Shown piece by piece: positions 1-18,348 of a DNA stretch of 64,000 nt. The notes beneath the pieces were generated by a model. It did not search any database. It was not told the DNA's origin and saw only the letters and a program-made list of their open reading frames with translations. Made by a program: the position numbers and the translations under genes. Origin of the DNA: Giardia intestinalis (lineage: Eukaryota); assembly GCA_000002435.2 (NCBI GenBank), contig CM018790.1; one strand, written 5' to 3'. The stretch's first letter is position 1. Each line of letters begins with the position of its first letter.

Positions 1-2565
1 AACCTCCTTGAGTTGAAGGCTGCAGTGGACACAGAGCTGATAAATATTACTGCAGAAAGGGATTTATTGGTCGCATACACTACTCCATACGTGCTCGTTC
101 AAATATCGTCACGGCTTGAGTTTACAATCGACGTTCTTAACAAGCTGCTAGCTTTACAAGAGAAACGTGAACGTGTTATGGCTCACAGGCGGCGTGACGA
201 GTGCACTGCGGCCATTGAGTTATCAAATATTTATGCAGAGGATCTGGTATCATTTTCTTTATTGATTAAGATTCCTCTTGACGAACTACATAGACATGTA
301 CCTCCGCTAGATCAAATGTCACACAATCAGATCCAGAGTAGCTACTTTGCAGAGCTAATCGGGGCTTCAGACAAAGGTATCGATGTGCTAATTAATATCC
401 TCTCTCGGGGGATCGCCTTCATAGAAGTATCTTCTGTGACATCTACCTTTCATAGTTACATCATGACAAAGCTCCAGAATTCGTCTTCATTTGAAGATAT
501 CCTCTGGGTATATACCTTTGTGCATCGAGCTGTGCACGAGAAAGCTCTTGAAGTTATCCGTGTTTCCTTTTTTACTGCTGGTAGCAAAGTATTTGAAGAA
601 GTATCCAAGGCAATGGTCAGAGTTAGAGATAAGCAGACTTATGCCACTCTTAGTTGTGCAGACATTTTCAAAGAGCACATAAACAATGCGATTCTTCTTT
701 TTCTGATCCAGCACTATACTAACTTTCTTTTGACACATTGTTTCTCCCTCTCTGAAGATGAAGTAGGTGCCTCTACAACAAGACTATCAATGGCCATCAG
801 TACCTGCATTGATAATCTGACTCTTAGTGCATATATGAAGATGCGCAGCCTTTTTCTGGCTGATCTCTTCGTCAATGCATTTGACACTTATTACGAGCTT
901 CTCGAGAGTATGGAGATGCCATGGATTGTACTGTCCACTTTGAGAGGTAATGGCTTTGATAGCACTAACATCCTTTTGGAGCTATCTCAACAGAGTGGCG
1001 GCCCCAATGATATTAGGACACTTGTTGTGCCTATTCTCCTCAAGCATATCAAGAATGACAGTTGCTACGACCAAAAGGTGCTTGCGTTTCGTTCTATCTT
1101 TGACCCACAGTGGCACTCCTCCTTTCACAAACGAGGGGAGTACTATATTCATAGATCTAGCGCGACCAGGTCTCTGGTGGATTGCGTAGTTGTACTTGAG
1201 TGTGCAGTAGATATTCTTACACATGATAAACTGCAGAAGGCAGCCATGCTTGTAGATGCAGTTCAACAGCTTGCATTTCGAATTCTTCTCTTCCATATCT
1301 TCAGAGAGTCTAAGATTCCTTACACAGCAATGCAATGCAGTATCAGGACAAAGTTTCAAACCTATGCCACCAGCATCCACCAGCGCTTGACAGATAGCCT
1401 CTTTGTTGACAGTTCTCGGCTAGGGCCTGGCTCAGAGCACATATTGTTAGGCTTGCTACGTGAATACTCATTAACAATCTCTAACATTTTCCAGCACTCC
1501 AAGAAGTATACATTATTGACAGATGCAACGGGCATAACGCTTCGAGAAAGCTTGGCAGAAACAGTTGAGGAGCTAAACGCGTACTATCTTCTTCAGAATA
1601 TAATTCATAGTATATCCGAAAAATTATATCTTGAGACCCAAATGCCTGCAGCTTATGACCGTGACAAGCAACAGCATTCTGAGGACCCCAAGGACTTGTC
1701 TGCTACAGAGGAATTACCACCACCCCAGCCAGTGGAAGATGGGCAGATTGCTTGTGATGAGAGTGATATATTTGCATCAGAGTCATGTAACCCCTCTATG
1801 CTTACATCAACAAGCCAGCCGCTCGCTGACTCCGCCATGTTATCCATAAGGTCTTTGCAATCTGTTTATGCTGCTATTGAGTCGGTGATACAGAGTATTA
1901 TAGCAAGCGAATTGAATAGAAACTTCAATCTTGTTGAGATAATGTACACAACTATTAAGAATGCAGCTGGGGAATATCGAAAAGAGGCAAAGGTAGACCG
2001 AGCAAGTAAAACAGTATATTCCAGCAAGCTTATTTCAACTCTGAAAAATAATTTCTATAACTTACGATTTGGCGTTTTAGCAACCCAAAGCAGCATCAGT
2101 GTCTCTAGTACTGATTCTGTTCTCAGCATAGTTACTCCTCCAACTGGCTCTGTGGGGCGCCCAACTTGTTCCCTTTTTAACTATCAGTTTTATAATGCGT
2201 TTGTAATACATGCATGTCAATGCTTCATAGCATCTGCTAGCAGCATTCCAGTGTACACTGCATACGGCAGAACGTGTCTAATGTATGACTATTGCAGCCT
2301 TCACAGCTTCCTTAACAGCGTCCTTCCAGATTTTTGCTTACAGAGAGTTGAGATACAGCAACACTTTGAACTCGTGCGCTCTTACATAGATCTCTATTTT
2401 GGAAGTACGGATGACATACGCGTCGCTATCTCCACTAATAAGTTTGGAGTTGGTCCATTGTTAGCACTGATCAGAACGGGGCTGGCTTGTCGCCTGACTT
2501 CGGCACAGATCGACTCTCTAGTTCTTGAGCTACCTAGCTCATTGCAAGAAAGACAATCTACTTAA
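1..2565 (+). CDS. Hypothetical protein, probably 5'-partial (reading frame open to window start; first in-window start is TTG at 13). Predicted helical, no recognisable catalytic motifs.
   Basis: Uninterrupted 850-codon ORF 13..2565 with upstream codons 1-12 also open; sits in the denser, moderately AT-rich coding context typical of the rest of the window. Confidence 0.5.
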   Translation, partial: NLLELKAAVDTELINITAERDLLVAYTTPYVLVQISSRLEFTIDVLNKLLALQEKRERVMAHRRRDECTAAIELSNIYAEDLVSFSLLIKIPLDELHRHVPPLDQMSHNQIQSSYFAELIGASDKGIDVLINILSRGIAFIEVSSVTSTFHSYIMTKLQNSSSFEDILWVYTFVHRAVHEKALEVIRVSFFTAGSKVFEEVSKAMVRVRDKQTYATLSCADIFKEHINNAILLFLIQHYTNFLLTHCFSLSEDEVGASTTRLSMAISTCIDNLTLSAYMKMRSLFLADLFVNAFDTYYELLESMEMPWIVLSTLRGNGFDSTNILLELSQQSGGPNDIRTLVVPILLKHIKNDSCYDQKVLAFRSIFDPQWHSSFHKRGEYYIHRSSATRSLVDCVVVLECAVDILTHDKLQKAAMLVDAVQQLAFRILLFHIFRESKIPYTAMQCSIRTKFQTYATSIHQRLTDSLFVDSSRLGPGSEHILLGLLREYSLTISNIFQHSKKYTLLTDATGITLRESLAETVEELNAYYLLQNIIHSISEKLYLETQMPAAYDRDKQQHSEDPKDLSATEELPPPQPVEDGQIACDESDIFASESCNPSMLTSTSQPLADSAMLSIRSLQSVYAAIESVIQSIIASELNRNFNLVEIMYTTIKNAAGEYRKEAKVDRASKTVYSSKLISTLKNNFYNLRFGVLATQSSISVSSTDSVLSIVTPPTGSVGRPTCSLFNYQFYNAFVIHACQCFIASASSIPVYTAYGRTCLMYDYCSLHSFLNSVLPDFCLQRVEIQQHFELVRSYIDLYFGSTDDIRVAISTNKFGVGPLLALIRTGLACRLTSAQIDSLVLELPSSLQERQST

Positions 2566-4102
2566 TTGCCTTTCAAACTTTTAAACTACGTATATCCTAT
2601 ACGTATTTTTCAGATAGCATGACTGATAAGGCTTCTCTTTGTCCCATCTGAGATCGGAGAACCCGACCGTACCACACTTCGCGAAGATGTGTTTGTCTCA
2701 AACAGCATCAGGGTCACATATTCACCAGAAGAGGACGGGGGTTTGCCTGATGAAGAAGGCGACGTGTCCTCTGAGGCTCGATACAGACCCCGCTTGCTAG
2801 CTGCTACTGTGACAGGCCTATGTGTGCTTGCTGCCGCATTTCTTGGGGGAGCATTCAAGGAGTAGAGAAACCCATATCTTATACTGAGAAAGGCCGAAGA
2901 GAGGGTCTCAGATACAGGTGAAAGGATCCTTCCTTCAAAGATACTTTAGTAACACTGGTGTAGACAGAAGCCAAGAAGGCTGAATCTAATTTGGATAGTT
3001 ATGTCATTGTAACACCACCCAATAGCTTGCTGAGAATTAGGACTTTGCCAGTGGGGTGTGTGGTTGTGCTTGAAGTTGAGCCACACGGAGTTGATGGTTA
3101 GACTACAAAGTAGTCGAGTTGAAGCTGTTACAACTCCAGCGTATGGGAAGAATGCAAGTGGGCGAGTTGATCACTCGTTAGCTGTTCTATCCTTGGCCAA
3201 ACCACTTGGCCGTTCGCGTTCATCCTGTATATAAGATAGTGAATGCGCATGTAACCCTCAAGAAATGCTTTATGGGAGAAGCAGTGTAAGCGTATCGAGG
3301 AACAGAAGCACGGAGACTTCTCTTAGCTACATCAAGCAAATGCTAAAGAGGGCTGCTAGTCGGAGAGTGCTTTTGGATCTGCAGTAGGATGGCGAGCAGG
3401 CATCTCTCTTGTGGAGCCGTGTGATGCCCGTTATTTGGCATGCAAAGAAGATACCATCAGGCTTAGCCAGAAACAGCCGAACAGCCTTTCATATGGTCTA
3501 CCGGAGTCATTCAATACACAAAGACGAGGCACTGTCTCATTACCACAGCGGTCTTGACAAACCCAGGCGTGCAAATGCCAACAATGCAAGCGGGACAAGT
3601 ACCATATCGATAGAGACTTGGATCTCAAAAGCAAACAGAGAGCACCGACCGCTACAGCGTGTGCTTATGCTGTCATGTATCTAACACCAGCAAGTATAAT
3701 TAGTAACAGGTCACTTGTAGGGAGTCATTGACTGCAGTGTAGCAGTGAGCAAAAGATCTAGCGTCCATTATTTGTGATTCTTAAATGCGCGAACGTTGTT
3801 CACAGTTAATAGACTACTCCGAAGGTGCCAGGCACCGAAGAATGTACGGCTAGACGTGGCGGCCACAAATCATGTACAGAAACATCAAACTAAAAAGTAG
3901 GCGGTTACGGGCGACTTTCATGGATGCATTCAAGGAATGACTGAGGCATTGTTAGGCCTGCATAATGTATCTATCGCAGGAGAGATACAGGAGCTGATAG
4001 ACACGTAGCTTACTACAATAAGTCGACAAGCAAAGCGTGGTTCAGGAGGATGCGAACCACTGTTGCATATATTAGGTTGTTGGGTTATGCCCATAAGCAT
4101 CC

Positions 4103-7100
4103 TGTGGACCGAGGCCTGCGCTCCTACACTACAGTGCAGCGGGCGGACGAGGCAGAGCCTGAATGGTATCGGAATTCCGGGGCAAGGGCTGAGCCGCGAC
4201 TGAGAGAGCAGCCTGCAGAGGGTGGAGCATAGCTCTCTGCTAACTCGAGGCGGCACAACCTGGCAATAGGACGGCTAATCCAGCCGTATTGACGTCTGAT
4301 AGACGCACCGAATACGCACTTCATGACCTCCGAATATCGTATGATGTGTGCTGGACAAGGGCCTCCCGGTGCACTTCGAGGACAGGACTGTTTAGCTAAA
4401 GCTAGAAGAGCGGTTGAGTCGTTCCCATCGGCGGCGGATGCTGCCCTGTGGACGCATATTTAAGGCTGCATCCCTTCGACTGAGCAGACAGCCGCTGGGT
4501 TACGTGCGAGCGGCCCAGGGTCTCGCCTGCCGCCTGTCCGGGCCAGTCAGCAGCTAGACTCGACATGCAGATGGAAGCCATGATAACGGACGCCGTCACG
4601 GAGGTCCGCCGTTTACTACTAGAACGGACGTGTCCGTGGCGGCCACCGTCTCCTAGAACAGCGCCCCCCCGCACAGGGCCGGCTATGTCGCGCCAGCTTG
4701 CTCGATAAGGGGCATGGGGGTCCCTTACGACGCCCTTCGGCATCTGCCGTGTCATAGGTACCCATGGCCACGAGCAGCTCAAGGGACGCAGCTATGTGGG
4801 CAGGGTAGCGTATTCATGGAGGGGCAGCTGCTTCACCTGTGCATGGCGGCGCCGGCCAGCACGTCTAGCTGCCCCACTGGCGACCACTCCTTCCCTGTGC
4901 TTGCCACAATGGGAGAGCACGTGCGCCCGTAGACCGGCAGATGCCGTGCTGGTCCTCTCGAGCAGTAGGCGCATCCTTGCGTGACATTCAGCGTGGACCA
5001 GATACCATGACCTGGGCCATCGCTACTGGCAAAGCAAGTGCTGATTGCAGCAGGGACGCCCGCCGCCCTCCAAGATAGACCAGCAACTTGCGTGTGAGGC
5101 TAGCGATGGGGCCTGCGCACCAGCTGCTATGAGCCCAGCCTTCCGGGCATCTAGATCACAGCACACTCGTCAAAGATGCACACTCATTTGCATACTCGCT
5201 GCTAGCGTTGGACAACTGCGAGGTGTCTGTCTCCGGCCGCGCTTGCCTTAGTGCTGGTCCCTGGTGATACGCCTCAGCCGAGGAGGCTATCCGTACGCGG
5301 CAGTTCCCGGAGAGAAGGCAGGGGTGACCGGCGGGCCAGGGAGATAGGACTAGCACTAGCGAGTCCAGCCATCGGCCCGGGTTGCACAAAGGACGCCTGT
5401 AGTGCCTCCCCGGCTTCTGAGCATGGAAGGGCTGTGGGGTCTGCAGATGAGACGGACGCTGTCTTTTGATTTTATGTGTTTGTAGCAGCATAGTATTTAT
5501 CGGGGTCTGCTCTGTCTGAAACCGAGAACATTCGCTTTCTTTCCTTATACAGGCTGGGATCGATTGTAGAGGTGTGCTGTGCAAACCGGTGGCAGTCAGC
5601 GTATCTACTATCCAAACGGATACTGCCTGCGTCCTCTTGTGGCAGACCACCACCAGGGCTCCAATCTGCACATCTGTTCTGGCATCTGTCGGCCAATCAT
5701 CACCTCCTGTCGAAGGATTGCTATACGTCACATATCTTGAGTCGTTCATCGACCAGGTGGTGCCATAAGCTCTTGTCTCCTACTTGTCCACCCGATGCTT
5801 ACTCTGAGCGCCGTCAATTCACTCACGTCTGCACTACTCATCTGGGTGCCCCCTACTCTTCAAGAGCACATGCCCGCAACCGATGCTCCGTATTACGAGA
5901 GGAGCCAGCCGGGCCACTGCGCTGTGCATAGCTCTCATGGGCGTATTGTTATGCGCGCCCAGCCTTTCCACCTGTAAGCTGTCACGCGGTCACATGTGCG
6001 CCAGCGCCGCCGAGCTTTCGTGGTCTCGAGGGGCCCCTGATGCATGGAGCGCTTGCGCAAAGTCCTTCCACCACTGACCCAAGCCGACCCCTCGCAAGAT
6101 CCTCAGCGGAGTTGCATCCGAGATGTGTGCTTGCATTGCTGTCCAGGTGCATGTGCCGGCCCTGGTGCTTCTCACAAGCTTGCGAGCATCAATCTGGCCT
6201 CTACCGAACCGTATCAGAAATCAACGTCAAGACGTGATCCCCTCAGTCAGGCTCTGCAGGCTCCCAGAGCTACGCACCAAAGGGCCGTTCTTCTTTGGTT
6301 GTGCAGTGTGGGGAGATCCATCGAGCTACCACACCCTTTCTGTGTGGCGTGGTTTACGACGGGGGACGGGATCCCTGTGCTCATTGTCTATCTGCCCAGG
6401 GCCAGCCACAGCCCGGGTTGACAATGACAAGCGAACATCGCCCGGCTCCTTGTCAGCAGGTGGGAACTTCCGCCACCCCAGTACCCACAGCAACGGGTGC
6501 CGATCACTGGCAGAAGGACAAGACACCCAGGCTCCCGTTCCTTCCACTGATGGTAGCCCACTATGAAGAGCCCTTTGCCGCCTGCACCAACAACCTCAGG
6601 CACTGTGGGTCCAAGTACTTCCATAGTGGACAGCGGTAGCACTATGATGATCTGGGGTGACAGGAGTCCTAGTTCACTGGCTCAGGAGACAGCACGCTTT
6701 GGGTAGTGCTTCCATCTTGTCCAGATCTGGGAGGGCTGGCTGCCTTCTGAGCCCACCTGGCACCTTGTCAGGTGATGGAGTGTCTTAAAGTATTCATTAC
6801 AAAAGATCAGAAATAGCGCCATGCATTCCCAATAGATCAGAGCGTCTCACGAGCTACTCTATGCTGATTCACACCTTTCATGGACCCTAGCGACCACTGT
6901 AACCTTCTTTCGGGATCTCGCAAGGGACTGTCCTTGAGTGCGATTCCCCCACGACAGCCGGAAGTCGCAGACATAATCCAAAGGGATGAGAGTACTACAG
7001 AGGCTGAGAGGAGAGTGCCGATGCACAGGGGTCCGCAGAGACCCGACTCGTACAGGGAAGGCGTGGATGCTGGCTCTCCAGGGATGTAGAGACACCAGGA

Positions 7101-8170
7101 AAGGAGCCGGCAGTGGGGCTTAGGCGCAGCAAAGGCACCCGATTCGTTCTCTGATTGGCCGCGAGGCAGCAGGCACATGGGGCGGCATCACCGCTTGTTT
7201 TTGGATTTTCTGTTTCCCTGCGCGTTGTGCAGGGGTCCGTAGTGGTTTGAGTATCACAGGCTACACATAGTAGATGCGTTTACTACCTAAGTCATATCTA
7301 AATCTATGCCTTTCCGCGGCAGAGGAACCACCAGCAGAGGAAGCCGACGAGGCCCCCGACGATGATGACAGCGGCCACGGCGATGCCTGCAATGGCGCCG
7401 GTAGAAAGGCCACTCTTGTTCGTGCTTCCGCCGGCACTGTCACCGTTCATGAGGTAGCAGAGGACGGAGCCTTGATTATTAGATGGAGGAGCGCAGCTCA
7501 TGCAGCCAGTAACTCCCTTGACACTTCCACTGTTGCTGTCACACGAAGTGCATGGTCCAGCTGCTGATCCGACCATATAGTACCCAGCTGCGCATGACGT
7601 ACACTTATCAGAGCTATCTGCAGTCGAGCATGTCTTGCAGGTCGAATGACACGAGGGGCATGCTCCATTATTGGGCTGAAGACCATTGGCACATGTTTCG
7701 CACTCACCCTTGCTATCAGCTAATGTGCATATCTGTTTGCCTGGCTGCTTGGTAGTTTCATAGCAGCCGCCTTCCTTGAGGAAGTAGTTAGCGGCGCATT
7801 TGGTACATGCTCCATTATTCATTTCAGTACAGAAAGCTACTCGTGCGTTACTTGTTGTACAGACCCCGTTCAGAGGAGCCTGATTATCCACTGAGCACTG
7901 GGAGCAGTAGTCTGTCCCGCCGATCCTTGCCCCACAGACCTTACATCCGTTCTTGTCCGCCGTACACGCATCCCCGCAGGTGCCCCCTTGCATAGGATCA
8001 CTACTTTTGTATATTAATGCCTTGCCAGCAGGACAAGCACTACACTGATTGTTGGCTGGCCCAACGCACTCAGCGCACTCAGGGCTGCATGCCTTACACT
8101 TCCTGTCAGTATCTCCATAGTATCCGCTGATGGCCGTGCAGTCGGATACGCACTGATTTGTTGGAGTGAG
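4103..8170. repeat. Left arm of a ~4,068-bp near-perfect inverted repeat. Contains the last ~880 bp of VSP coding sequence on the minus strand, its AGTAAAC poly(A) signal and ~3.2 kb of GC-rich ORF-poor sequence.
   Basis: Every ORF in 3930-8188 has an identical mirror ORF in 11626-15711 on the opposite strand with coordinates summing to 19814 (e.g. 4402..4782(-) <-> 15032..15412(+); 7304..8188(-) <-> end of 9211..12510(+)). Outer boundary checked by reverse-complement comparison at 4103/15711, inner boundary at 8170/11644. Confidence 0.92.
7278..7284 (-). terminator. Giardia-type polyadenylation signal AGTAAAC (AGTPuAAPy) downstream of the left VSP C-terminal segment (mirror of 12530-12536).
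   Basis: Reverse complement of gtttact at 7278-7284. Lies 20 nt past the stop of the 7304..8188 ORF. Confidence 0.5.
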
Positions 8171-8892
8171 GTAGTTCCACCATTGCACTCAGTATAGGCT
8201 TCGTTCTCTTTGCCTTCGTTATTGCACGTCTTACAGCCCGGTGTTATGCAGTTGCTAGTCGATTGGCATTCAGTTGAATCAGCGCTAGGCTGGAAGCCTT
8301 CACTGTATGTGCAAGCACCACCCTGATTGGACGAGTTGGCAGGGCAACTAGCAACGCACGACTTTTTGTTGAGGCCAAAGATGGTCTTATCAGAATCGGG
8401 GCACTCTTTGCATACTGCTCCGTCGCCGTTCTTTTCACAAGTCTTACAATCTTTTGCCCCGCCCGATGTGCAGGTAGTGCAGGTTTTCGCTGCTTCATCT
8501 ATGTAGTGTGTTGCTGGGCAATCGCCCTGATTAACGCACGTGCCTGTCTCACTGCCATCCTCCTTCTTCAGGTAGAGCGTGGCTCCAGTACACGAGGTGC
8601 ACTGCGTCTCTGTATTCTCGCATGTCTTACAGCTGGAAGCACATTTGCTGCATTTCTTTCCATTACGTGAGTCCACAAAATACCCATTATTGTAATCGGC
8701 CTCCTCGACACACGACGTTACGCCGTCGACTGTCTTGACAATCTTGCCGCCTCCACATGCATTGCACATCGCTGCCTTAGTGTTACTAGGATTAGCTGGC
8801 GTATTTGCTATCTGAATGAGTATTGTGTCGTGGTTTCCCGCAGCGGAGAAACCGCCACAGAAGAAGCCGGTGGGATCACCGGTGATAAACAT
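7304..8892 (-). pseudogene. Variant-specific surface protein (VSP) pseudogene or chimera. The N-terminal Cys-rich segment (8014..8892) is joined out of frame (-1 nt) to the duplicated VSP C-terminal region (7304..8188). No signal peptide after its first ATG.
   Basis: Two overlapping minus-strand ORFs in different frames. The upstream one is CXXC-rich (CKTC, CTSC, CKEC...). The downstream one is identical to the C-terminus of the intact VSP, including the TM segment and CRGKA tail. Comparison with the right copy shows a 1-nt length difference at the junction (left aatggtggaactacc vs right aatgataaaagttatc), which is exactly the repeat boundary. In-frame upstream sequence hits TGA with no hydrophobic leader. 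Confidence 0.6.
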
Positions 8893-9210
8893 AGCAAAGG
8901 TAAGGTTGTACGAGGGTCAGTCCTCTGAATACATTTGTGCAGAGAACCACCGAGGGAATCAGAACAGATACAAGTGGGCTAGAGGCTTTGTTATTGAAAC
9001 AGGAACCTGCTACGTCAACGATGAAAGCCCGTTCTTGGCTTCAGAGGCAGAGTCATGACAGTAGCTAGCCACTGAATGATGACGCATCCATTAGAGCTTA
9101 TTGTTCTCAACGTCTGGATCTACAATCAGATTAGTGGCAGTCCATAGTTTTACTATTGCAATTCTTCGAAGAGCAGACGCGAGTCGATAACCGAGTGTAG
9201 GTTTCGGCTA

Positions 9211-12200
9211 ATGTTGCTAGGGCTTCTCCTATTTTGTGCAGTAGCACGGGCAAACTGCAAGGCCGGGAACACGCCCTCACAAGACGGGACGACGTGCGAG
9301 CCGAATGCAAACGGATGTGCCAAAGCCTTGACCGACGCCGGCTGTGCGACCTGCACCCCGGCGGGTGACGACCAGACGTGCCTCACCTGCAACCCCGGTT
9401 CAAACAAGGTCAGGCCGGACAGGAAGGGCTGCATCGCTTCGTGTCCCGCCAACTCGAACGAGGCAGGAGGAATCTGCACGTGCACGGCCGGGAACACGCC
9501 CTCACAAGACGGGACGACGTGCGAGCCGAATGCAAACGGATGTGCCAAAGCCTTGACCGACGCCGGCTGTGCGACCTGCACCCCGGCGGGTGACGACCAG
9601 ACGTGCCTCACCTGCAACCCCGGTTCAAACAAGGTCAGGCCGGACAGGAAGGGCTGCATCGCTTCGTGTCCCGCCAACTCGAACGAGGCAGGAGGAATCT
9701 GCACGTGCACGGCCGGGAACACGCCCTCACAAGACGGGACGACGTGCGAGCCGAATGCAAACGGATGTGCCAAAGCCTTGACCGACGCCGGCTGTGCGAC
9801 CTGCACCCCGGCGGGTGACGACCAGACGTGCCTCACCTGCAACCCCGGTTCAAACAAGGTCAGGCCGGACAGGAAGGGCTGCATCGCTTCGTGTCCCGCC
9901 AACTCGAACGAGGCAGGAGGAATCTGCACGTGCACGGCCGGGAACACGCCCTCACAAGACGGGACGACGTGCGAGCCGAATGCAAACGGATGTGCCAAAG
10001 CCTTGACCGACGCCGGCTGTGCGACCTGCACCCCGGCGGGTGACGACCAGACGTGCCTCACCTGCAACCCCGGTTCAAACAAGGTCAGGCCGGACAGGAA
10101 GGGCTGCATCGCTTCGTGTCCCGCCAACTCGAACGAGGCAGGAGGAATCTGCACGTGCACGGCCGGGAACACGCCCTCACAAGACGGGACGACGTGCGAG
10201 CCGAATGCAAACGGATGTGCCAAAGCCTTGACCGACGCCGGCTGTGCGACCTGCACCCCGGCGGGTGACGACCAGACGTGCCTCACCTGCAACCCCGGTT
10301 CAAACAAGGTCAGGCCGGACAGGAAGGGCTGCATCGCTTCGTGTCCCGCCAACTCGAACGAGGCAGGAGGAATCTGCACGTGCACGGCCGGGAACACGCC
10401 CTCACAAGACGGGACGACGTGCGAGCCGAATGCAAACGGATGTGCCAAAGCCTTGACCGACGCCGGCTGTGCGACCTGCACCCCGGCGGGTGACGACCAG
10501 ACGTGCCTCACCTGCAACCCCGGTTCAAACAAGGTCAGGCCGGACAGGAAGGGCTGCATCGCTTCGTGTCCCGCCAACTCGAACGAGGCAGGAGGAATCT
10601 GCACGTGCACGGCCGGGAACACGCCCTCACAAGACGGGACGACGTGCGAGCCGAATGCAAACGGATGTGCCAAAGCCTTGACCGACGCCGGCTGTGCGAC
10701 CTGCACCCCGGCGGGTGACGACCAGACGTGCCTCACCTGCAACCCCGGTTCAAACAAGGTCAGGCCGGACAGGAAGGGCTGCATCGCTTCGTGTCCCGCC
10801 AACTCGAACGAGGCAGGAGGAATCTGCACGTGCACGGCCGGGAACACGCCCTCACAAGACGGGACGACGTGCGAGCCGAATGCAAACGGATGTGCCAAAG
10901 CCTTGACCGACGCCGGCTGTGCGACCTGCACCCCGGCGGGTGACGACCAGACGTGCCTCACCTGCAACCCCGGTTCAAACAAGGTCAGGCCGGACAGGAA
11001 GGGCTGCATCGCTTCGTGTCCCGCCAACTCGAACGAGGCAGGAGGAATCTGCACGTGCACGGCCGGGAACACGCCCTCACAAGACGGGACGACGTGCGAG
11101 CCGAATGCAAACGGATGTGCCAAAGCCTTGACCGACGCCGGCTGTGCGACCTGCACCCCGGCGGGTGACGACCAGACGTGCCTCACCTGCAACCCCGGTT
11201 CAAACAAGGTCAGGCCGGACAGGAAGGGCTGCATCGCTTCGTGTCCCGCCAACTCGAACGAGGCAGGAGGAATCTGCACGTGCACGGCCGGGAACACGCC
11301 CTCACAAGACGGGACGACGTGCGAGCCGAATGCAAACGGATGTGCCAAAGCCTTGACCGACGCCGGCTGTGCGACCTGCACCCCGGCGGGTGACGACCAG
11401 ACGTGCCTCACCTGCAACCCCGGTTCAAACAAGGTCAGGCCGGACAGGAAGGGCTGCATCGCTTCGTGTCCCGCCAACTCGAACGAGGCAGGAGGAATCT
11501 GCACGTGCACGGCCGGGAACACGCCCTCACAAGACGGGACGACGTGCGTATCAGAGACGGCCTGCAATACTCCCAACTGCAAGGCATGTGATAACCCGAA
11601 GACTGACAGAGAGGTCTGTACTGAATGTAATGATAAAAGTTATCTCACTCCAACAAATCAGTGCGTATCCGACTGCACGGCCATCAGCGGATACTATGGA
11701 GATACTGACAGGAAGTGTAAGGCATGCAGCCCTGAGTGCGCTGAGTGCGTTGGGCCAGCCAACAATCAGTGTAGTGCTTGTCCTGCTGGCAAGGCATTAA
11801 TATACAAAAGTAGTGATCCTATGCAAGGGGGCACCTGCGGGGATGCGTGTACGGCGGACAAGAACGGATGTAAGGTCTGTGGGGCAAGGATCGGCGGGAC
11901 AGACTACTGCTCCCAGTGCTCAGTGGATAATCAGGCTCCTCTGAACGGGGTCTGTACAACAAGTAACGCACGAGTAGCTTTCTGTACTGAAATGAATAAT
12001 GGAGCATGTACCAAATGCGCCGCTAACTACTTCCTCAAGGAAGGCGGCTGCTATGAAACTACCAAGCAGCCAGGCAAACAGATATGCACATTAGCTGATA
12101 GCAAGGGTGAGTGCGAAACATGTGCCAATGGTCTTCAGCCCAATAATGGAGCATGCCCCTCGTGTCATTCGACCTGCAAGACATGCTCGACTGCAGATAG

Positions 12201-12510
12201 CTCTGATAAGTGTACGTCATGCGCAGCTGGGTACTATATGGTCGGATCAGCAGCTGGACCATGCACTTCGTGTGACAGCAACAGTGGAAGTGTCAAGGGA
12301 GTTGCTGGCTGCATGAGCTGCGCTCCTCCATCTAATAATCAAGGCTCCGTCCTCTGCTACCTCATGAACGGTGACAGTGCCGGCGGAAGCACGAACAAGA
12401 GTGGCCTTTCTACCGGCGCCATTGCAGGCATCGCCGTGGCCGCTGTCATCATCGTCGGGGGCCTCGTCGGCTTCCTCTGCTGGTGGTTCCTCTGCCGCGG
12501 AAAGGCATAG
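9211..12510 (+). CDS. vsp: Variant-specific surface protein (VSP), intact, 1099 aa. Has signal peptide MLLGLLLFCAVARA, ~10 identical 75-aa Cys-rich tandem repeats, conserved C-terminal Cys-rich region, a TM segment (GAIAGIAVAAVIIVGGLVGFLCWWFL) and the CRGKA cytoplasmic tail.
   Basis: ATG at 9211; many CXXC motifs; GGCY-like motif; C-terminal ...CWWFLCRGKA* is the invariant Giardia VSP tail; AGTAAAC poly(A) signal 20 nt after the TAG stop. Confidence 0.92.
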   Translation: MLLGLLLFCAVARANCKAGNTPSQDGTTCEPNANGCAKALTDAGCATCTPAGDDQTCLTCNPGSNKVRPDRKGCIASCPANSNEAGGICTCTAGNTPSQDGTTCEPNANGCAKALTDAGCATCTPAGDDQTCLTCNPGSNKVRPDRKGCIASCPANSNEAGGICTCTAGNTPSQDGTTCEPNANGCAKALTDAGCATCTPAGDDQTCLTCNPGSNKVRPDRKGCIASCPANSNEAGGICTCTAGNTPSQDGTTCEPNANGCAKALTDAGCATCTPAGDDQTCLTCNPGSNKVRPDRKGCIASCPANSNEAGGICTCTAGNTPSQDGTTCEPNANGCAKALTDAGCATCTPAGDDQTCLTCNPGSNKVRPDRKGCIASCPANSNEAGGICTCTAGNTPSQDGTTCEPNANGCAKALTDAGCATCTPAGDDQTCLTCNPGSNKVRPDRKGCIASCPANSNEAGGICTCTAGNTPSQDGTTCEPNANGCAKALTDAGCATCTPAGDDQTCLTCNPGSNKVRPDRKGCIASCPANSNEAGGICTCTAGNTPSQDGTTCEPNANGCAKALTDAGCATCTPAGDDQTCLTCNPGSNKVRPDRKGCIASCPANSNEAGGICTCTAGNTPSQDGTTCEPNANGCAKALTDAGCATCTPAGDDQTCLTCNPGSNKVRPDRKGCIASCPANSNEAGGICTCTAGNTPSQDGTTCEPNANGCAKALTDAGCATCTPAGDDQTCLTCNPGSNKVRPDRKGCIASCPANSNEAGGICTCTAGNTPSQDGTTCVSETACNTPNCKACDNPKTDREVCTECNDKSYLTPTNQCVSDCTAISGYYGDTDRKCKACSPECAECVGPANNQCSACPAGKALIYKSSDPMQGGTCGDACTADKNGCKVCGARIGGTDYCSQCSVDNQAPLNGVCTTSNARVAFCTEMNNGACTKCAANYFLKEGGCYETTKQPGKQICTLADSKGECETCANGLQPNNGACPSCHSTCKTCSTADSSDKCTSCAAGYYMVGSAAGPCTSCDSNSGSVKGVAGCMSCAPPSNNQGSVLCYLMNGDSAGGSTNKSGLSTGAIAGIAVAAVIIVGGLVGFLCWWFLCRGKA
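9262..11547 (+). repeat. In-frame tandem array of ~10.2 identical 225-bp units inside the VSP gene. Each unit encodes 75 aa (...AGNTPSQDGTTCEPNANGCAKALTDAGCATCTPAGDDQTCLTCNPGSNKVRPDRKGCIASCPANSNEAGGICTCT).
   Basis: Identical shadow ORFs recur every 225 nt (9344, 9569, 9794 ... 11369) on the plus strand, and the minus-strand ORF 9153..11582 shows a matching 75-aa periodicity. No unit-to-unit differences visible in the translations. Confidence 0.93.
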
Positions 12511-15500
12511 ATTTAGATATGACTTAGGTAGTAAACGCATCTACTATGTGTAGCCTGTGATACTCAAACCACTACGGACCCCTGCACAACGCGCAGGGAA
12601 ACAGAAAATCCAAAAACAAGCGGTGATGCCGCCCCATGTGCCTGCTGCCTCGCGGCCAATCAGAGAACGAATCGGGTGCCTTTGCTGCGCCTAAGCCCCA
12701 CTGCCGGCTCCTTTCCTGGTGTCTCTACATCCCTGGAGAGCCAGCATCCACGCCTTCCCTGTACGAGTCGGGTCTCTGCGGACCCCTGTGCATCGGCACT
12801 CTCCTCTCAGCCTCTGTAGTACTCTCATCCCTTTGGATTATGTCTGCGACTTCCGGCTGTCGTGGGGGAATCGCACTCAAGGACAGTCCCTTGCGAGATC
12901 CCGAAAGAAGGTTACAGTGGTCGCTAGGGTCCATGAAAGGTGTGAATCAGCATAGAGTAGCTCGTGAGACGCTCTGATCTATTGGGAATGCATGGCGCTA
13001 TTTCTGATCTTTTGTAATGAATACTTTAAGACACTCCATCACCTGACAAGGTGCCAGGTGGGCTCAGAAGGCAGCCAGCCCTCCCAGATCTGGACAAGAT
13101 GGAAGCACTACCCAAAGCGTGCTGTCTCCTGAGCCAGTGAACTAGGACTCCTGTCACCCCAGATCATCATAGTGCTACCGCTGTCCACTATGGAAGTACT
13201 TGGACCCACAGTGCCTGAGGTTGTTGGTGCAGGCGGCAAAGGGCTCTTCATAGTGGGCTACCATCAGTGGAAGGAACGGGAGCCTGGGTGTCTTGTCCTT
13301 CTGCCAGTGATCGGCACCCGTTGCTGTGGGTACTGGGGTGGCGGAAGTTCCCACCTGCTGACAAGGAGCCGGGCGATGTTCGCTTGTCATTGTCAACCCG
13401 GGCTGTGGCTGGCCCTGGGCAGATAGACAATGAGCACAGGGATCCCGTCCCCCGTCGTAAACCACGCCACACAGAAAGGGTGTGGTAGCTCGATGGATCT
13501 CCCCACACTGCACAACCAAAGAAGAACGGCCCTTTGGTGCGTAGCTCTGGGAGCCTGCAGAGCCTGACTGAGGGGATCACGTCTTGACGTTGATTTCTGA
13601 TACGGTTCGGTAGAGGCCAGATTGATGCTCGCAAGCTTGTGAGAAGCACCAGGGCCGGCACATGCACCTGGACAGCAATGCAAGCACACATCTCGGATGC
13701 AACTCCGCTGAGGATCTTGCGAGGGGTCGGCTTGGGTCAGTGGTGGAAGGACTTTGCGCAAGCGCTCCATGCATCAGGGGCCCCTCGAGACCACGAAAGC
13801 TCGGCGGCGCTGGCGCACATGTGACCGCGTGACAGCTTACAGGTGGAAAGGCTGGGCGCGCATAACAATACGCCCATGAGAGCTATGCACAGCGCAGTGG
13901 CCCGGCTGGCTCCTCTCGTAATACGGAGCATCGGTTGCGGGCATGTGCTCTTGAAGAGTAGGGGGCACCCAGATGAGTAGTGCAGACGTGAGTGAATTGA
14001 CGGCGCTCAGAGTAAGCATCGGGTGGACAAGTAGGAGACAAGAGCTTATGGCACCACCTGGTCGATGAACGACTCAAGATATGTGACGTATAGCAATCCT
14101 TCGACAGGAGGTGATGATTGGCCGACAGATGCCAGAACAGATGTGCAGATTGGAGCCCTGGTGGTGGTCTGCCACAAGAGGACGCAGGCAGTATCCGTTT
14201 GGATAGTAGATACGCTGACTGCCACCGGTTTGCACAGCACACCTCTACAATCGATCCCAGCCTGTATAAGGAAAGAAAGCGAATGTTCTCGGTTTCAGAC
14301 AGAGCAGACCCCGATAAATACTATGCTGCTACAAACACATAAAATCAAAAGACAGCGTCCGTCTCATCTGCAGACCCCACAGCCCTTCCATGCTCAGAAG
14401 CCGGGGAGGCACTACAGGCGTCCTTTGTGCAACCCGGGCCGATGGCTGGACTCGCTAGTGCTAGTCCTATCTCCCTGGCCCGCCGGTCACCCCTGCCTTC
14501 TCTCCGGGAACTGCCGCGTACGGATAGCCTCCTCGGCTGAGGCGTATCACCAGGGACCAGCACTAAGGCAAGCGCGGCCGGAGACAGACACCTCGCAGTT
14601 GTCCAACGCTAGCAGCGAGTATGCAAATGAGTGTGCATCTTTGACGAGTGTGCTGTGATCTAGATGCCCGGAAGGCTGGGCTCATAGCAGCTGGTGCGCA
14701 GGCCCCATCGCTAGCCTCACACGCAAGTTGCTGGTCTATCTTGGAGGGCGGCGGGCGTCCCTGCTGCAATCAGCACTTGCTTTGCCAGTAGCGATGGCCC
14801 AGGTCATGGTATCTGGTCCACGCTGAATGTCACGCAAGGATGCGCCTACTGCTCGAGAGGACCAGCACGGCATCTGCCGGTCTACGGGCGCACGTGCTCT
14901 CCCATTGTGGCAAGCACAGGGAAGGAGTGGTCGCCAGTGGGGCAGCTAGACGTGCTGGCCGGCGCCGCCATGCACAGGTGAAGCAGCTGCCCCTCCATGA
15001 ATACGCTACCCTGCCCACATAGCTGCGTCCCTTGAGCTGCTCGTGGCCATGGGTACCTATGACACGGCAGATGCCGAAGGGCGTCGTAAGGGACCCCCAT
15101 GCCCCTTATCGAGCAAGCTGGCGCGACATAGCCGGCCCTGTGCGGGGGGGCGCTGTTCTAGGAGACGGTGGCCGCCACGGACACGTCCGTTCTAGTAGTA
15201 AACGGCGGACCTCCGTGACGGCGTCCGTTATCATGGCTTCCATCTGCATGTCGAGTCTAGCTGCTGACTGGCCCGGACAGGCGGCAGGCGAGACCCTGGG
15301 CCGCTCGCACGTAACCCAGCGGCTGTCTGCTCAGTCGAAGGGATGCAGCCTTAAATATGCGTCCACAGGGCAGCATCCGCCGCCGATGGGAACGACTCAA
15401 CCGCTCTTCTAGCTTTAGCTAAACAGTCCTGTCCTCGAAGTGCACCGGGAGGCCCTTGTCCAGCACACATCATACGATATTCGGAGGTCATGAAGTGCGT

Positions 15501-15711
15501 ATTCGGTGCGTCTATCAGACGTCAATACGGCTGGATTAGCCGTCCTATTGCCAGGTTGTGCCGCCTCGAGTTAGCAGAGAGCTATGCTCCACCCTCTGCA
15601 GGCTGCTCTCTCAGTCGCGGCTCAGCCCTTGCCCCGGAATTCCGATACCATTCAGGCTCTGCCTCGTCCGCCCGCTGCACTGTAGTGTAGGAGCGCAGGC
15701 CTCGGTCCACA
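11644..15711. repeat. Right arm of the ~4,068-bp inverted repeat (mirror of 4103-8170).
   Basis: Same as left arm. One confirmed difference: right 12304 g vs the complement of left 7510 t, giving VSP residue A vs T (GVAGCM vs GVTGCM). Confidence 0.92.
12530..12536 (+). terminator. Polyadenylation signal AGTAAAC (AGTPuAAPy consensus) for the VSP gene.
   Basis: agtaaac located 20 nt downstream of the TAG at 12508-12510. Confidence 0.55.
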
Positions 15712-15909
15712 CTTCAGTGTTACCCATTCCCATAGTGCAATCCGTCACATTAGAAGATCAAGGATGTTTTAGCTTAGTCTTTGCAACCATCTATGAAGAG
15801 TGCTTCGCAAAGGAAAGAACATGGCAAAACTTTATTGGGACTTTGTCCAGCACTCTTCTAAGCCTAGAATCCGCATTGCCAACGACTAGGGAAGTATCGA
15901 ATGTTCTAG

Positions 15910-16862
15910 GAAACCGCTTGGAAGCACAGCCCACGATATGTTGCCCTGCAAGAGCCTTTCCCTTTAACTCGGCGCATTCAGCCATGCACTCCCACCTCTA
16001 TAGAATTCCGAGACGTCTGCTTTTCCTACAAGACGGGCTGCGATATTCTACATGGCTTGACCCTGTTTGTTCATCCCGGTCAGAAGGTTGCTATCGTGGG
16101 AGGTCGGGGATTGGCAAGTCCACGATCATCAACCTCTTGACGCGGCTATACACCACACCCCAGCATCAGGACACTTCGTCGCCCGGAATCTATCTCAATG
16201 GCAGGGCTATAGGGTCCATCCCACGCGAGGAGCTACGGAGGCTTATAACAGTCGTCCCGCAGGATAACATACTCATCAGGGGCTCTGCCACGGACAACAT
16301 CGCCTATGGACAGCCTCGCAAGCTCCCGGGCTCCCACGCAGAAGAGGAGCAGAGGCGCTACATCCGAGAAGTCATTCGGCTATGCTACGAGGCTTCCCGT
16401 GTTGTTGCGGCTGAAGAGCTCCTGGGAGACGCACCATACAGTGGAACCCTGCAGGGCCTTTCTGGGGGACAACGCCAACGGGTAGGAATTGCCAGAGCTG
16501 TCGCACGTGGAGGCAGCGTTCTTGTGCTCGACGAGGCGACGTCGGCACTCGACGAAGAGACAGAGAAGCGGGTCCTCCAACAGCTATTCCGCTCACTGGA
16601 CCCCAACCAGAGCGTCGTCATTATCAGTCACAGACTCTCCACTCTCCGGTATGTCGACCTGATTTATGTCCTAGATAATCCAGATGGCAGTGGAGCGCGC
16701 GTGGTAGAGTCAGGCTCGTACGACTGGTTCGTTGCCGAAAGCCAATATCTGAAGGATGCAGGCCAGGATATCTCTGACCTTGTGAGTAACTGTGGCTGTA
16801 GCAGCGCAGGTGTTACCCCAGGCTTCTCCCATGCAACTCTTGATGCAAAGGGGGATCCGTAG
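15910..16862 (+). pseudogene. ABC-transporter C-terminal nucleotide-binding-domain remnant (ABCB/MDR-like NBD). No start codon or transmembrane domain, and a 1-nt deletion (G-run ~16098-16104) splits the Walker A motif between two frames.
   Basis: Frame +1 (15910-16110): ...SIEFRDVCFSYKTGCDILHGLTLFVHPGQKVAIVGG. After the shift, frame 0 continues: SGIGKSTIINLL...IAYGQP...LSGGQRQRVGIARAV (ABC signature)...VLVLDEATSALD (Walker B)...ISHRLSTL (H-loop). The long 15558..16862 ORF only seems to start inside the inverted repeat because the repeat's GC-rich DNA reads open in that frame. Confidence 0.7.
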
Positions 16863-16903
16863 AAGCAAAGCACGCCTGGTGGCGAAGACGAGTAAAAATA
16901 AAA

Positions 16904-17500
16904 ATGCCAGCAAATGAACACTGCGCAGATCTGATTTCTCGCCTGTTATATTTGCGCTCCCTACAAGCCCTGTACATAAACAGACGCGTCGAAAAAACGG
17001 TCTACATGAAACAGATAAATGACCTTTTTGGTATTCCAGGATCCCAAGAGGGGCCCATTCAAATCCTACTCAAAAGCCTAAAAATTGGAACACTTAGTGA
17101 ACTTCGCAGGTTGCTGAAGAACTACGAGATAGATTGCACTGAAATATCGTCTATTGAATACATTCTGCTTGAGCGCAAAGTCGTCAGTGGGGAGTATTGC
17201 CAGAAGGTAGATAAAAATACCAGGGAGCTGCTCGAATGCTTGTATGAAACAATAAACCTCCTAACGCCCAATTCGCCCCTAAGTTATGATCAACTTCTAA
17301 CGTATGGCAATAATCTGGTGTCCAAAGCAAAAAAACTCACAGATGGCGTCAACTCAACGTGGCCAGTACTCAAGGAACTCGAAGGCTTAGTAGAACAGAT
17401 AGAGCATGAAGCTAATTTGAAAACAAACATCTGTCCAGCAGATTTAAAAAGTGCATTTGCAGAACGTTTAAAAAGCATATATGATAAAATATTCTGCTGA
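16904..17500 (+). CDS. Hypothetical protein (198 aa). Stops at a TGA that is in frame with, and 3 nt before, the next ORF.
   Basis: ATG at 16904; no recognisable motifs. Confidence 0.4.
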   Translation: MPANEHCADLISRLLYLRSLQALYINRRVEKTVYMKQINDLFGIPGSQEGPIQILLKSLKIGTLSELRRLLKNYEIDCTEISSIEYILLERKVVSGEYCQKVDKNTRELLECLYETINLLTPNSPLSYDQLLTYGNNLVSKAKKLTDGVNSTWPVLKELEGLVEQIEHEANLKTNICPADLKSAFAERLKSIYDKIFC

Positions 17501-17503
17501 CAA

Positions 17504-18274
17504 ATGATAAAGCTTAGACTAGAGGACAGTAAATCGCACATTCTGAAGGCAGGAGATGGCGAGTTAGTGGACGCTTTGGACCATACAGGGGAACAATCTG
17601 CAAGGGTGATGAGGGCATCACCTTTTGCGGTTCCATACCCTACCAAAGCAGACGCGTCTGTCTATAAGTATCTCTGCTACCTGGAGTTTCTTCTGAAGCT
17701 CCAGAGGAGGTGCCATGGCTCTCAAGAGGTGGAAACCGAAATTCATGCCGTGTTGAGCACAAAGGGCCCGATCGTTAGAGGATGTTCTCTGCTGCACATC
17801 AGGACGATGGATAGTCTAGTTCGTCGCCTCAAATCGTTCTTTATAGACTTTCAGAACTGCTACGATGCAATTACATTGGTTGGCAAAGAGCTATTTGTGG
17901 GAGACAACATTGTCTGTCCACAGGTAGATAGAGATGAACTTCTATCAAGCTTTTATGTGCTTATTGGGCTTCTCAACGAAAGATCTTCACCGGCTTATCT
18001 CGAGGAAGTCTATTACTCCATCTGGGGGCTTGTTCGACAGATAGATGGTACTCAAGCAATTCAAGATGCCTTCTTCACAGAACGGAATGCACTCGTTGGC
18101 ATCTTGCAGGAGCTTTATGGTTATGTAAAGCAAAAAGAGAAGGAAACTGCGATAGACTTACCTTCGCAGATTGGAAAGCCTACCCAGCGTCTACTTGATA
18201 TTGCTCTCCGTAAGCGTTTACTCGAGCAGCTTGTTCCCCTCTACAAAGCGATGCATGCTCAAGTCAACGTCTGA
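17504..18274 (+). CDS. Hypothetical protein (256 aa), same frame as 16904..17500.
   Basis: ATG at 17504 immediately after TGA-CAA; no recognisable motifs. Confidence 0.4.
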   Translation: MIKLRLEDSKSHILKAGDGELVDALDHTGEQSARVMRASPFAVPYPTKADASVYKYLCYLEFLLKLQRRCHGSQEVETEIHAVLSTKGPIVRGCSLLHIRTMDSLVRRLKSFFIDFQNCYDAITLVGKELFVGDNIVCPQVDRDELLSSFYVLIGLLNERSSPAYLEEVYYSIWGLVRQIDGTQAIQDAFFTERNALVGILQELYGYVKQKEKETAIDLPSQIGKPTQRLLDIALRKRLLEQLVPLYKAMHAQVNV

Positions 18275-18348
18275 CCTGCCATACTAGCGAATGGGCCCGC
18301 CGAACTTGAAAAAGGACAATCAAGCAACATGAAAATTCCAAAAAAGAG

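Follow-up and report, generated by a model that had tools for sequence, protein, structure and literature searches.

Known hairpin-RNA and pseudogene-derived endo-siRNA loci include the hpRNA genes of Drosophila, the inverted pseudogene duplications of mouse oocytes and Mu killer of maize, and such loci are defined by a mapped precursor transcript together with abundant Dicer-dependent small RNAs. Inverted pairs of VSP genes are a published class in Giardia WB, with about 19–20 identical pairs and additional partial duplications. One study described 14 identical inverted pairs and 5 non-identical pairs, and proposed recent duplication and recombination as their source (Adam 2010); another reported 19 inverted VSP pairs, with 6.9% of the genome being duplicated (Xu 2020). 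A further described element, Girep-5, consists of a 225-nt unit present 10 times, and lies on a scaffold of at least 1.39 Mb (Chen 2009, Table 2). RT-PCR of Girep-5 gave products from both strands, the Solexa small-RNA read counts were 13/2, and the element was proposed to be a source of VSP-directed siRNAs. In a TSS-seq paper, scaffold CH991763 is at least 1.39 Mb.

We analysed a 64,000-nt stretch of the Giardia intestinalis WB-C6 genome (referred to here as the window) that contains a long inverted repeat. The initial annotation had placed the repeat at 4103–15711, and a repeat search of the window returned exactly these limits, with arms of 4071 nt each (4103–8173 and 11641–15711) separated by a 3467-nt spacer. 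The arms had also been described as capable of forming a perfect hairpin; base-by-base comparison showed that they are near-perfect, with two mismatches (7510/12304 and 8171/11643; 99.95% identity), perfect runs of 3407 and 660 nt, and a sharp drop in similarity at either end. No other inverted repeat of at least 60 nt was found in the 64-kb window, and the uniqueness of this one rules out a chance origin. A palindromic long-read artefact, of the spacer-less kind that arises from missed SMRTbell adapters, is ruled out by the 3.5-kb unique spacer and the two real differences between the arms. The features of the locus are as follows, in window coordinates:

1–2565, plus strand: 3' part of GL50803_00102071, the left-flank gene (970 aa), oriented toward the repeat
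4103–8173: left arm (repeat search and arm comparison)
Starts at 6672, 5817 and 4611, minus strand: mirrors, in the left arm, of three outward AGTRAAY signals
6785–6816 (mirror 12999–13030): AT-rich element; apart from this pair, no 30-nt window in 2500–16000 reaches 80% A+T
7278–7284, minus strand: mirror poly(A) signal, past the stop codon of the left pseudogene
7304–8892, minus strand: VSP pseudogene, two overlapping ORFs in different frames (8892–8014 and 8188–7304)
8174–8178, minus strand: 1-nt deletion (frameshift) in the left pseudogene, directly inside the inner identity boundary
8174–11640: spacer, 3467 nt, holding the divergent 5' portion of each VSP gene, with 318 nt separating the two start codons
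9211–12510, plus strand: intact VSP, 1099 aa, with a signal-peptide-like N-terminus, TM domain and CRGKA tail (PF03302, E = 5e-88)
9256–11548, plus strand: tandem array within the right VSP, 10.2 x 225 bp (75-aa repeats; repeat search)
11641–15711: right arm (repeat search and arm comparison), with a novel junction at 15711/15712
12511–15711: non-VSP part of the arm, 3.2 kb, 58% GC, largest ORF at most 197 aa
12530–12536, plus strand: AGTAAAC, a canonical poly(A) signal of Giardia, 20 nt beyond the stop codon of the right VSP
13136–15203, plus strand: three more outward AGTRAAY signals in the right arm, with starts at 13136, 13991 and 15197
15712–15943: unique sequence of 232 nt between the right arm and the ABC fragment
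15944–16862, plus strand: pseudo-ABC, a diverged, frameshifted 3' fragment of an ABC-transporter gene (nucleotide-binding domain only)

We compared the locus with the inverted VSP pairs, of which vsp1267 is the prototype (Adam 2010; Xu 2020). In both, the inverted blocks are nearly 100% identical and end abruptly, and they occupy a GC-rich, gene-poor region and seem to have arisen recently. Here 3467 nt lie between the identical blocks, within the published range of 2.2–3.8 kb, and the orientation is that of the class, with the two genes head-to-head and both transcribed outward. By contrast, identity does not cover the full-length ORF, but only its last 870 nt, upstream of which the two genes are similar at the level of the family; identity extends 3201 nt beyond the stop codon, rather than 139–729 nt as published; and the start codons are 318 nt apart, whereas the published ORFs are separated by 2.2–3.8 kb. 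One partner here is a pseudogene, and the intact gene contains tandem repeats, whereas a 2022 preprint states that no duplicated VSP has repeats. The locus is not among the entries of the published pair tables. We conclude that it is an unlisted, partial member of the inverted VSP pair class.

The right-hand gene has the features that define the VSP family: a Cys-rich ectodomain with CXXC motifs, a TM domain, a CRGKA tail and a signal peptide, the last of these assessed by eye, without a predictor. The protein starts with MLLGLLLFCAVARA, ends with ...WWFLCRGKA, and is 100% identical to a protein annotated as "VSP" in WB C6 (P0001). The initiator PyAatgTT is present at the start codon (CTAATGTT, in a TAATGTT context). 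Alignment shows the gene to be chimeric at 11641, with an ORF that is intact across this inner boundary. The array within the gene is probably Girep-5, a match based solely on the size and number of the repeat units and on the length of the scaffold: here 10.2 x 225 bp lie on a chromosome of 1.54 Mb, and Girep-5 has 10 units of 225 nt (Chen 2007, 2009). Girep RNAs have been described as non-coding, whereas the repeats in this gene are an in-frame part of an intact VSP.

The initial annotation had reported two outward VSP genes; their orientation was as described, but the left-hand gene is a frameshifted pseudogene without a signal peptide. Rather than one continuous ORF, it has two, and the alignment at the frameshift reads GGAA-CTACCTC against AAAGTTATCTC. 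The C-terminal ORF matches PF03302 (E = 6e-86), and the N-terminal ORF has only a weak VSP match. Its N-terminus, MFITGDPTGFF..., is non-hydrophobic, and the initiator motif is absent. The split between two frames and the absence of both signal peptide and initiator motif indicate that the left-hand gene is a pseudo-VSP.

The assignment of the first ~0.9 kb of the arm to the C-terminal coding region of a VSP was confirmed by the PF03302 matches of both copies: this block, which encodes the final 289 codons and stop of a VSP ending in CRGKA, spans 870 nt (11641–12510; mirror 7304–8173) and is the only VSP sequence in each arm. The remaining 3.2 kb is non-coding DNA. Pfam searches with the arm ORFs and with all six stop-masked frames of 12511–15943 gave no matches, as did an Rfam search of 1–20000; these searches do not support an identity as a retrotransposon relic, which has been published for DNA near other pairs. 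Divergence between the arms is 0.05%, compared with ~2.3% between WB (A1) and A2 isolates (L012–L015) in the adjacent single-copy gene. With only 2 differences in 4071 nt, the arms were therefore duplicated, or last homogenised, long after A1 and A2 diverged.

The two outer ends of the repeat differ in their surroundings. Sequence past 15711 shows no relation to the left flank, and a rearrangement junction lies directly against the right arm. The ABC fragment beyond it differs from an intact 933-aa gene in L001/2/3/7 by ~3% and by a 1-nt indel at 16098. When the fragment was used for a homology search, generic ABC transporters dominated the matches. At the left end, a contig from DH (A2; L011) is homologous on either side of 4103, with no break at the arm boundary. 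Homology spans the left-flank gene through 4103 to 4452 and then 4824–5368, with diverged left-arm-like sequence up to the end of the contig at window position ~5368; no contig from any other isolate reaches the spacer or the right arm. This continuity across 4103 indicates that the left arm is probably the ancestral copy and the right arm the derived one. Identity between WB and DH is only 60–80% from about 3700 to 4450, such that orthology across 4103 is not clean.

Taken together, we consider it likely that the locus reflects a very recent inverted segmental duplication, or a gene-conversion tract, at a head-to-head VSP/pseudo-VSP locus, and is not a dedicated silencing element. The template would have been the minus-strand VSP and ~3.2 kb of downstream non-coding DNA, that is, the left arm in its ancestral place; an inverted copy of this block would have been added to the 3' side of the adjacent plus-strand VSP, with the copying event resolving within VSP coding sequence, where the paralogues are alike. 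The inner identity boundary lies inside homologous VSP coding sequence that is ~60–70% identical beyond it. The outcome would be a chimeric, intact 1099-aa VSP in which the last 289 codons, the 3' UTR and the poly(A) signal come from the donor, beside a left gene that is now a pseudogene. Both this direction of copying and the mechanism are inferred. The locus would then be one more outcome of ectopic recombination, by which the VSP family is constantly rearranged.

The frameshift in the left gene, the supposed donor, lies at most 5 nt from the inner identity boundary. This position counts against recent duplication from the left arm, and would suit the left copy as recipient better. The only explanation we offer is that the frameshift was a pre-existing heterology that halted the conversion tract.

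We next consider the RNA that the repeat could form. As the initial annotation correctly cautioned, a hairpin requires antisense or read-through transcription, since both genes point outward. The ~4-kb hairpin that it envisaged does not hold up: a signal scan identified four outward AGTRAAY poly(A) signals per arm, and the 4-kb structure would require an 11.6-kb RNA that ignores the four canonical signals in its outward half. With these signals in the path, the attainable stem would realistically be about 0.9 kb at most, not 4 kb. On the inward-reading strands, there is no AGTRAAY between 3238 and 12530 (plus) or in the mirror interval (minus); together with the transcripts from both strands of the probable Girep-5, this makes a hairpin RNA physically possible. 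In plus-strand RNA, a 905-nt stem is fully paired, with both mismatches becoming G.U wobbles, and has a duplex energy of about -1997 kcal/mol, compared with about -440 kcal/mol for shuffled partners. The AT-rich element and its mirror are candidates for a cryptic bidirectional initiator of an inward transcript, a suggestion that comes from base composition. The locus resembles known hairpin-RNA loci in having a long genomic inverted repeat that contains gene and pseudogene sequence and could form a perfect stem, a potential Dicer substrate that could act in trans on paralogues. It differs from them in being known from sequence alone, and the arrangement of its poly(A) signals and the youth of the repeat speak against a dedicated precursor.

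The VSP part of the arm had been described as the most conserved part of the family. Among 119 VSPs, this was true of the last ~30–50 codons, which are 76–91% identical; it was not true of the other ~240 codons, which are 39–60% identical. Hence, as judged from these identities, only ~100–150 nt of the stem is conserved enough for action on other VSPs. Published miRNA target sites concentrate in the final 100 nt of VSP ORFs, and this segment falls within the candidate stem.

A functional hairpin-RNA (endo-siRNA) locus would work by inward antisense transcription, starting for example at 12999–13030 or 6785–6816 and ending at the first poly(A) signal beyond the opposite stop codon, to give a ~905-bp stem of VSP 3' sequence; Giardia Dicer would cut this stem into 25–27-nt RNAs that would direct Argonaute to the conserved 3' ends of VSP mRNAs. 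The complete pairing and low energy of the stem, the inward paths free of canonical poly(A) signals, the location of the miRNA target sites within the stem, and the reported transcription of both strands and small-RNA reads of the probable Girep-5 array in the spacer are all consistent with this explanation. However, the Solexa counts for Girep-5 are tiny, there is no promoter evidence, the repeat is very young with one gene dead and a rearrangement junction at its right arm, and the conserved portion of the stem is short. Moreover, most VSPs, inside repeats or outside them, make antisense RNA: sense reads exceed antisense reads in only 12–20% of all VSPs, and antisense reads exceed sense reads in 80–88%. 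Conversely, VSP1267, a member of a perfect inverted pair, is the top transcript in a clone. An inverted repeat is therefore neither necessary nor sufficient for silencing. None of the papers examined proposes VSP inverted repeats as siRNA clusters or reports them as such. We regard a functional endo-siRNA locus as quite improbable, and we give very little credence to a hairpin-RNA gene whose rare transcript (~6816 to 12550, plus, or ~12999 to 7265, minus) would yield Dicer-generated 25–27-nt RNAs contributing to the silencing of non-expressed VSPs through their last ~100–150 nt, with the 20-odd WB pairs serving as a genome-encoded, RdRP-independent source of dsRNA for antigenic variation. Alternatively, the pseudogene and the duplicated arm may be maintained by selection as a reservoir from which gene conversion creates new chimeric VSPs. 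A chimeric junction is visible at 11641 in the intact VSP, recombination among VSPs has been described, with the suggestion that pairs may seed new genes (Adam 2010), and WB has ~208 VSP pseudogenes. By contrast, 3.2 kb of each arm is non-VSP sequence, irrelevant to antigen diversity, and the present evidence fits both selection for this role and a neutral by-product of recombination. We consider such a selected reservoir unlikely.

Misassembly of the inverted repeat, or of its right-hand junction, in the PacBio-based WB reference would account for a discrepancy with short-read data: all short-read contigs that include the 198-aa neighbour have an intact ABC gene, with bases that differ at 15944–16874, and the window-type sequence of 15944–16874 was not found among the short-read contigs. 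In addition, the arm and spacer ORFs are absent from the contig collection; exact-product look-ups with the VSP, the N-terminal ORF of the pseudogene, four arm ORFs and two forms of the ABC-fragment ORF gave no match there. However, repeats of this kind are expected to interrupt short-read assemblies, and inverted VSP duplications have been validated in the WB genome. The unique spacer, the differences between the arms and the VSP ORF that is intact across the inner boundary are likewise at odds with an artefact, DH independently has left-arm-like sequence beside the same flank gene, and an array of 10 x 225 nt was already present in the 2007 Sanger assembly. An assembly error is thus highly improbable as an explanation for the repeat.

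Based on the very young age of the repeat, its pseudogene partner and the rearrangement junction at its right arm, the inverted repeat seems to be a structural accident rather than a conserved regulator. The function that the initial annotation had proposed, a built-in trigger or regulator of VSP silencing, found no support; the dsRNA/silencing hypothesis is weakened but not refuted. Under a recent inverted duplication, rare inward antisense transcripts would be the source of any dsRNA from the locus. The stem, no longer than ~0.9 kb, would be incidental and would contribute little beyond the antisense RNA that most VSP genes already produce.

At the neighbouring ABC-transporter gene, the WB reference and the short-read assemblies may be inconsistent with each other. 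The locus also suggests that, in at least one case, the repeat region of a VSP gene has been published as a "non-coding Girep RNA". If inverted VSP duplications do seed dsRNA, the disputed RNAi model of antigenic variation would gain a concrete genomic trigger. The locus shows cleanly, and in a form that can be dated, how chimeric VSPs arise by ectopic recombination, with pseudogenes left behind.

The repeat search recovered the two arms of the inverted repeat at exactly the coordinates given in the initial annotation, and both VSP genes were confirmed to read outward across them:

4103–8173: left arm, 4071 nt
11641–15711: right arm, 4071 nt, separated from the left arm by 3467 nt
9211–12510, plus strand: intact VSP, a 1099-aa ORF matching, at 100% identity, a Giardia intestinalis WB clone C6 protein annotated as 'VSP'
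9256–11548, plus strand: tandem array of 10.2 copies of a 225-bp (75-aa) repeat, inside the intact VSP
7304–8892, minus strand: left gene, a pseudogene whose VSP-like frame is split in two by a 1-nt deletion

Base-by-base comparison showed that similarity drops abruptly at the outer ends of the arms. The arms had been described as perfect over ~4 kb; the length was borne out, but they are 99.95% identical, with differences at 7510/12304 and 8171/11643 and uninterrupted identity over 3407 and 660 nt. Both differences are transitions, and that at 7510/12304 alters a VSP codon (Ala in the intact gene, Thr in the pseudogene). The arms are the sole inverted repeat of at least 60 nt in the 64-kb window, ruling out chance as a concern, and the window contains no further copy of their sequence. 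As initially annotated, ~0.9 kb of each arm encodes a VSP C-terminus, namely the inner 870 nt (289 codons plus stop). The other 3201 nt are GC-rich (58%), with a longest ORF of at most 197 aa, and had no match in Rfam, or in Pfam when searched ORF by ORF and as six stop-masked frames.

The intact VSP, whose annotated protein comes from a 1,539,535-bp record and so places the window in the PacBio-based WB reference, has a hydrophobic N-terminus, the start-codon context TAATGTT, a TM domain, a CRGKA tail, a PF03302 match (E = 5e-88), and the canonical poly(A) signal AGTAAAC 20 nt 3' of its stop codon. The pseudogene lacks the initiator motif, the stretch after its first Met is not hydrophobic, and its 1-nt deletion lies at most 5 nt from the inner identity boundary. 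The genes are arranged head to head, with 318 nt between start codons. In a collection of 5.8 billion clusters that includes WB-like short-read assemblies, the closest proteins to the intact VSP, besides the WB reference's own, share at most 66% identity; either the reference alone carries this gene or this C-terminus, or other assemblies have missed it. The array repeat also holds open an 809-aa antisense ORF (9153–11582, minus strand), almost certainly a side effect of the repetition and no gene. Elsewhere in the window, a 1681-aa cysteine-rich ORF (36288–41333, minus strand) with weak EGF-like Pfam matches and no CRGKA tail overlaps a local maximum in GC content (59% at 40–41 kb); it probably encodes a high-cysteine membrane protein (CRMP/HCMP).

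Other assemblies were reached through flanking single-copy genes. A contig of the isolate DH (assemblage A2; AHGT01000074.1) is colinear with the window from the left-flank gene, GL50803_00102071, past 4103 to 4452, and again at 4824–5368, with no discontinuity where the left arm begins, indicating that the left arm is in its ancestral place; identity between WB (A1) and DH falls to 60–80% at ~3700–4450, such that orthology is not clean there. Around this stretch (window ~3700–4900, DH contig 13,900–15,270), identity is 96–100% up to ~3700, ~50–80% for ~1.2 kb, and then 85–93%; the drop far exceeds the usual A1/A2 divergence and begins ~400 nt outside the arm boundary. The WB-identical short-read contigs carrying GL50803_00102071 (L016–L018) all stop ~70–130 nt past its stop codon (window ~2635–2693), 1.4 kb short of the arm, perhaps because of a repeat or an allelic fork in the intergenic region.

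Beyond the right arm come 232 nt of unique sequence and then an ABC-transporter gene fragment (3' part), a paralogous copy with a frameshift at 16098 and ~3% divergence from the intact 933-aa version in short-read assemblies. From 16899 onward those assemblies match the window at 100% identity. The right arm is thus the derived copy, at a rearrangement-prone junction. All retrieved short-read contigs (L001–L010) have the intact 933-aa gene at the position of 15944–16898, with different upstream genes, a discrepancy suggesting a junction formed by ectopic recombination, a second copy, or a misjoin in the reference. Divergence between the arms is ~40-fold lower than that between A1 and A2 in the neighbouring gene (0.05% versus ~2.3%), indicating that the duplication or last homogenisation was very recent.

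We consider it probable that the repeat arose very recently, by inverted segmental duplication or gene conversion of a kind usual for VSP loci, with any dsRNA output incidental at most. The inner boundary falls in VSP coding sequence where paralogues are still ~60–70% similar, which fits recombination or gene conversion resolved within homologous sequence. On this reading the intact VSP is a chimera whose final 289 codons, together with the UTR and poly(A) signal, were acquired from the neighbouring gene. A frameshift at the boundary of the supposed donor is awkward, the only explanation offered being a pre-existing heterology that halted the tract, and hence the direction of copying is one that we infer only. 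A recombination reservoir maintained by selection is an unlikely account of the locus, and an assembly artefact a highly improbable one.

Published work treats inverted VSP pairs as characteristic of the WB genome; the first pair described was vsp1267. Adam et al. (2010) reported 14 identical and five non-identical pairs, which they termed 'interesting, but cryptic' and explained by duplication and recombination in the recent past; Xu et al. (2020) reported 19 pairs and 208 pseudo-VSPs, with duplications making up 6.9% of the genome. The present locus has no entry in the pair tables of either study. The identical pairs of Adam et al. (2010) are head to head or tail to tail, with ORFs 2.2–3.8 kb apart and identity that stops 139–729 nt from the ORF. 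By contrast, in the present locus the ORFs are not identical over their full length, the flanking identity is not short and the ORFs do not lie kilobases apart; it is best regarded as a partial member of this known class that the tables omit.

The literature searched contained no explicit proposal of inverted VSP pairs as sources of hairpin dsRNA. Such a hairpin is possible in principle: an RNA containing 7269–8173 and 11641–12545 is predicted to form a fully paired 905-bp stem (~−1997 kcal/mol, versus ~−440 for shuffled partners), both arm differences becoming G·U wobbles in plus-strand RNA. In minus-strand RNA they become A·C mismatches. The initial annotation rightly made antisense or read-through RNA a prerequisite. 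Each arm has four outward and no inward canonical AGTRAAY poly(A) signals, and sense mRNAs should end ~40–50 nt beyond the stop codon. The ~4-kb hairpin that it envisaged is unsupported, as it would take an 11.6-kb RNA that ignores all four signals. The arms could be joined only by antisense RNA starting inward, giving a stem of ~0.9 kb at most. No promoter for such RNA is known; candidates are suggested by base composition:

6785–6816 and its mirror, 12999–13030: the only AT-rich windows, candidate promoters

The arm-encoded VSP region was also said to be the family's most conserved part. This holds for the last ~30–50 codons (76–91% identity across 119 VSPs) but not for the remainder (39–60%), so at most ~100–150 nt could give small RNAs matching other VSPs.

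Published strand-specific RNA-seq detected more sense than antisense reads in only 12–20% of all 136 VSPs, indicating that antisense RNA is family-wide and independent of inverted repeats. In a clone expressing VSP1267, a perfect inverted pair, its transcript is the most abundant, and inverted-repeat context therefore does not silence in cis. Genomic hairpins are not required by the established models (RdRP/Dicer/Ago RNAi; miRNAs targeting vsp ORFs). Thus, a built-in regulator of VSP silencing is unsupported, and a functional hairpin-RNA locus is quite unlikely given the youth of the repeat, its poly(A) layout, the short conserved stretch and these expression data. One point favours it: in Chen et al. 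(2009), 'Girep-5' is an array of 10 225-nt units on scaffold CH991763 (at least 1.39 Mb). RT-PCR in that study showed transcripts from both strands, small-RNA reads numbered 13/2, and the authors suggested that the array gives rise to VSP-directed siRNAs. Judged by its size, its copy number and the length of its scaffold, Girep-5 is probably the spacer array. In that case, antisense RNA crossing the spacer has been observed before, and the Girep 'non-coding RNA' would be the repeat portion, in frame, of an intact VSP gene.
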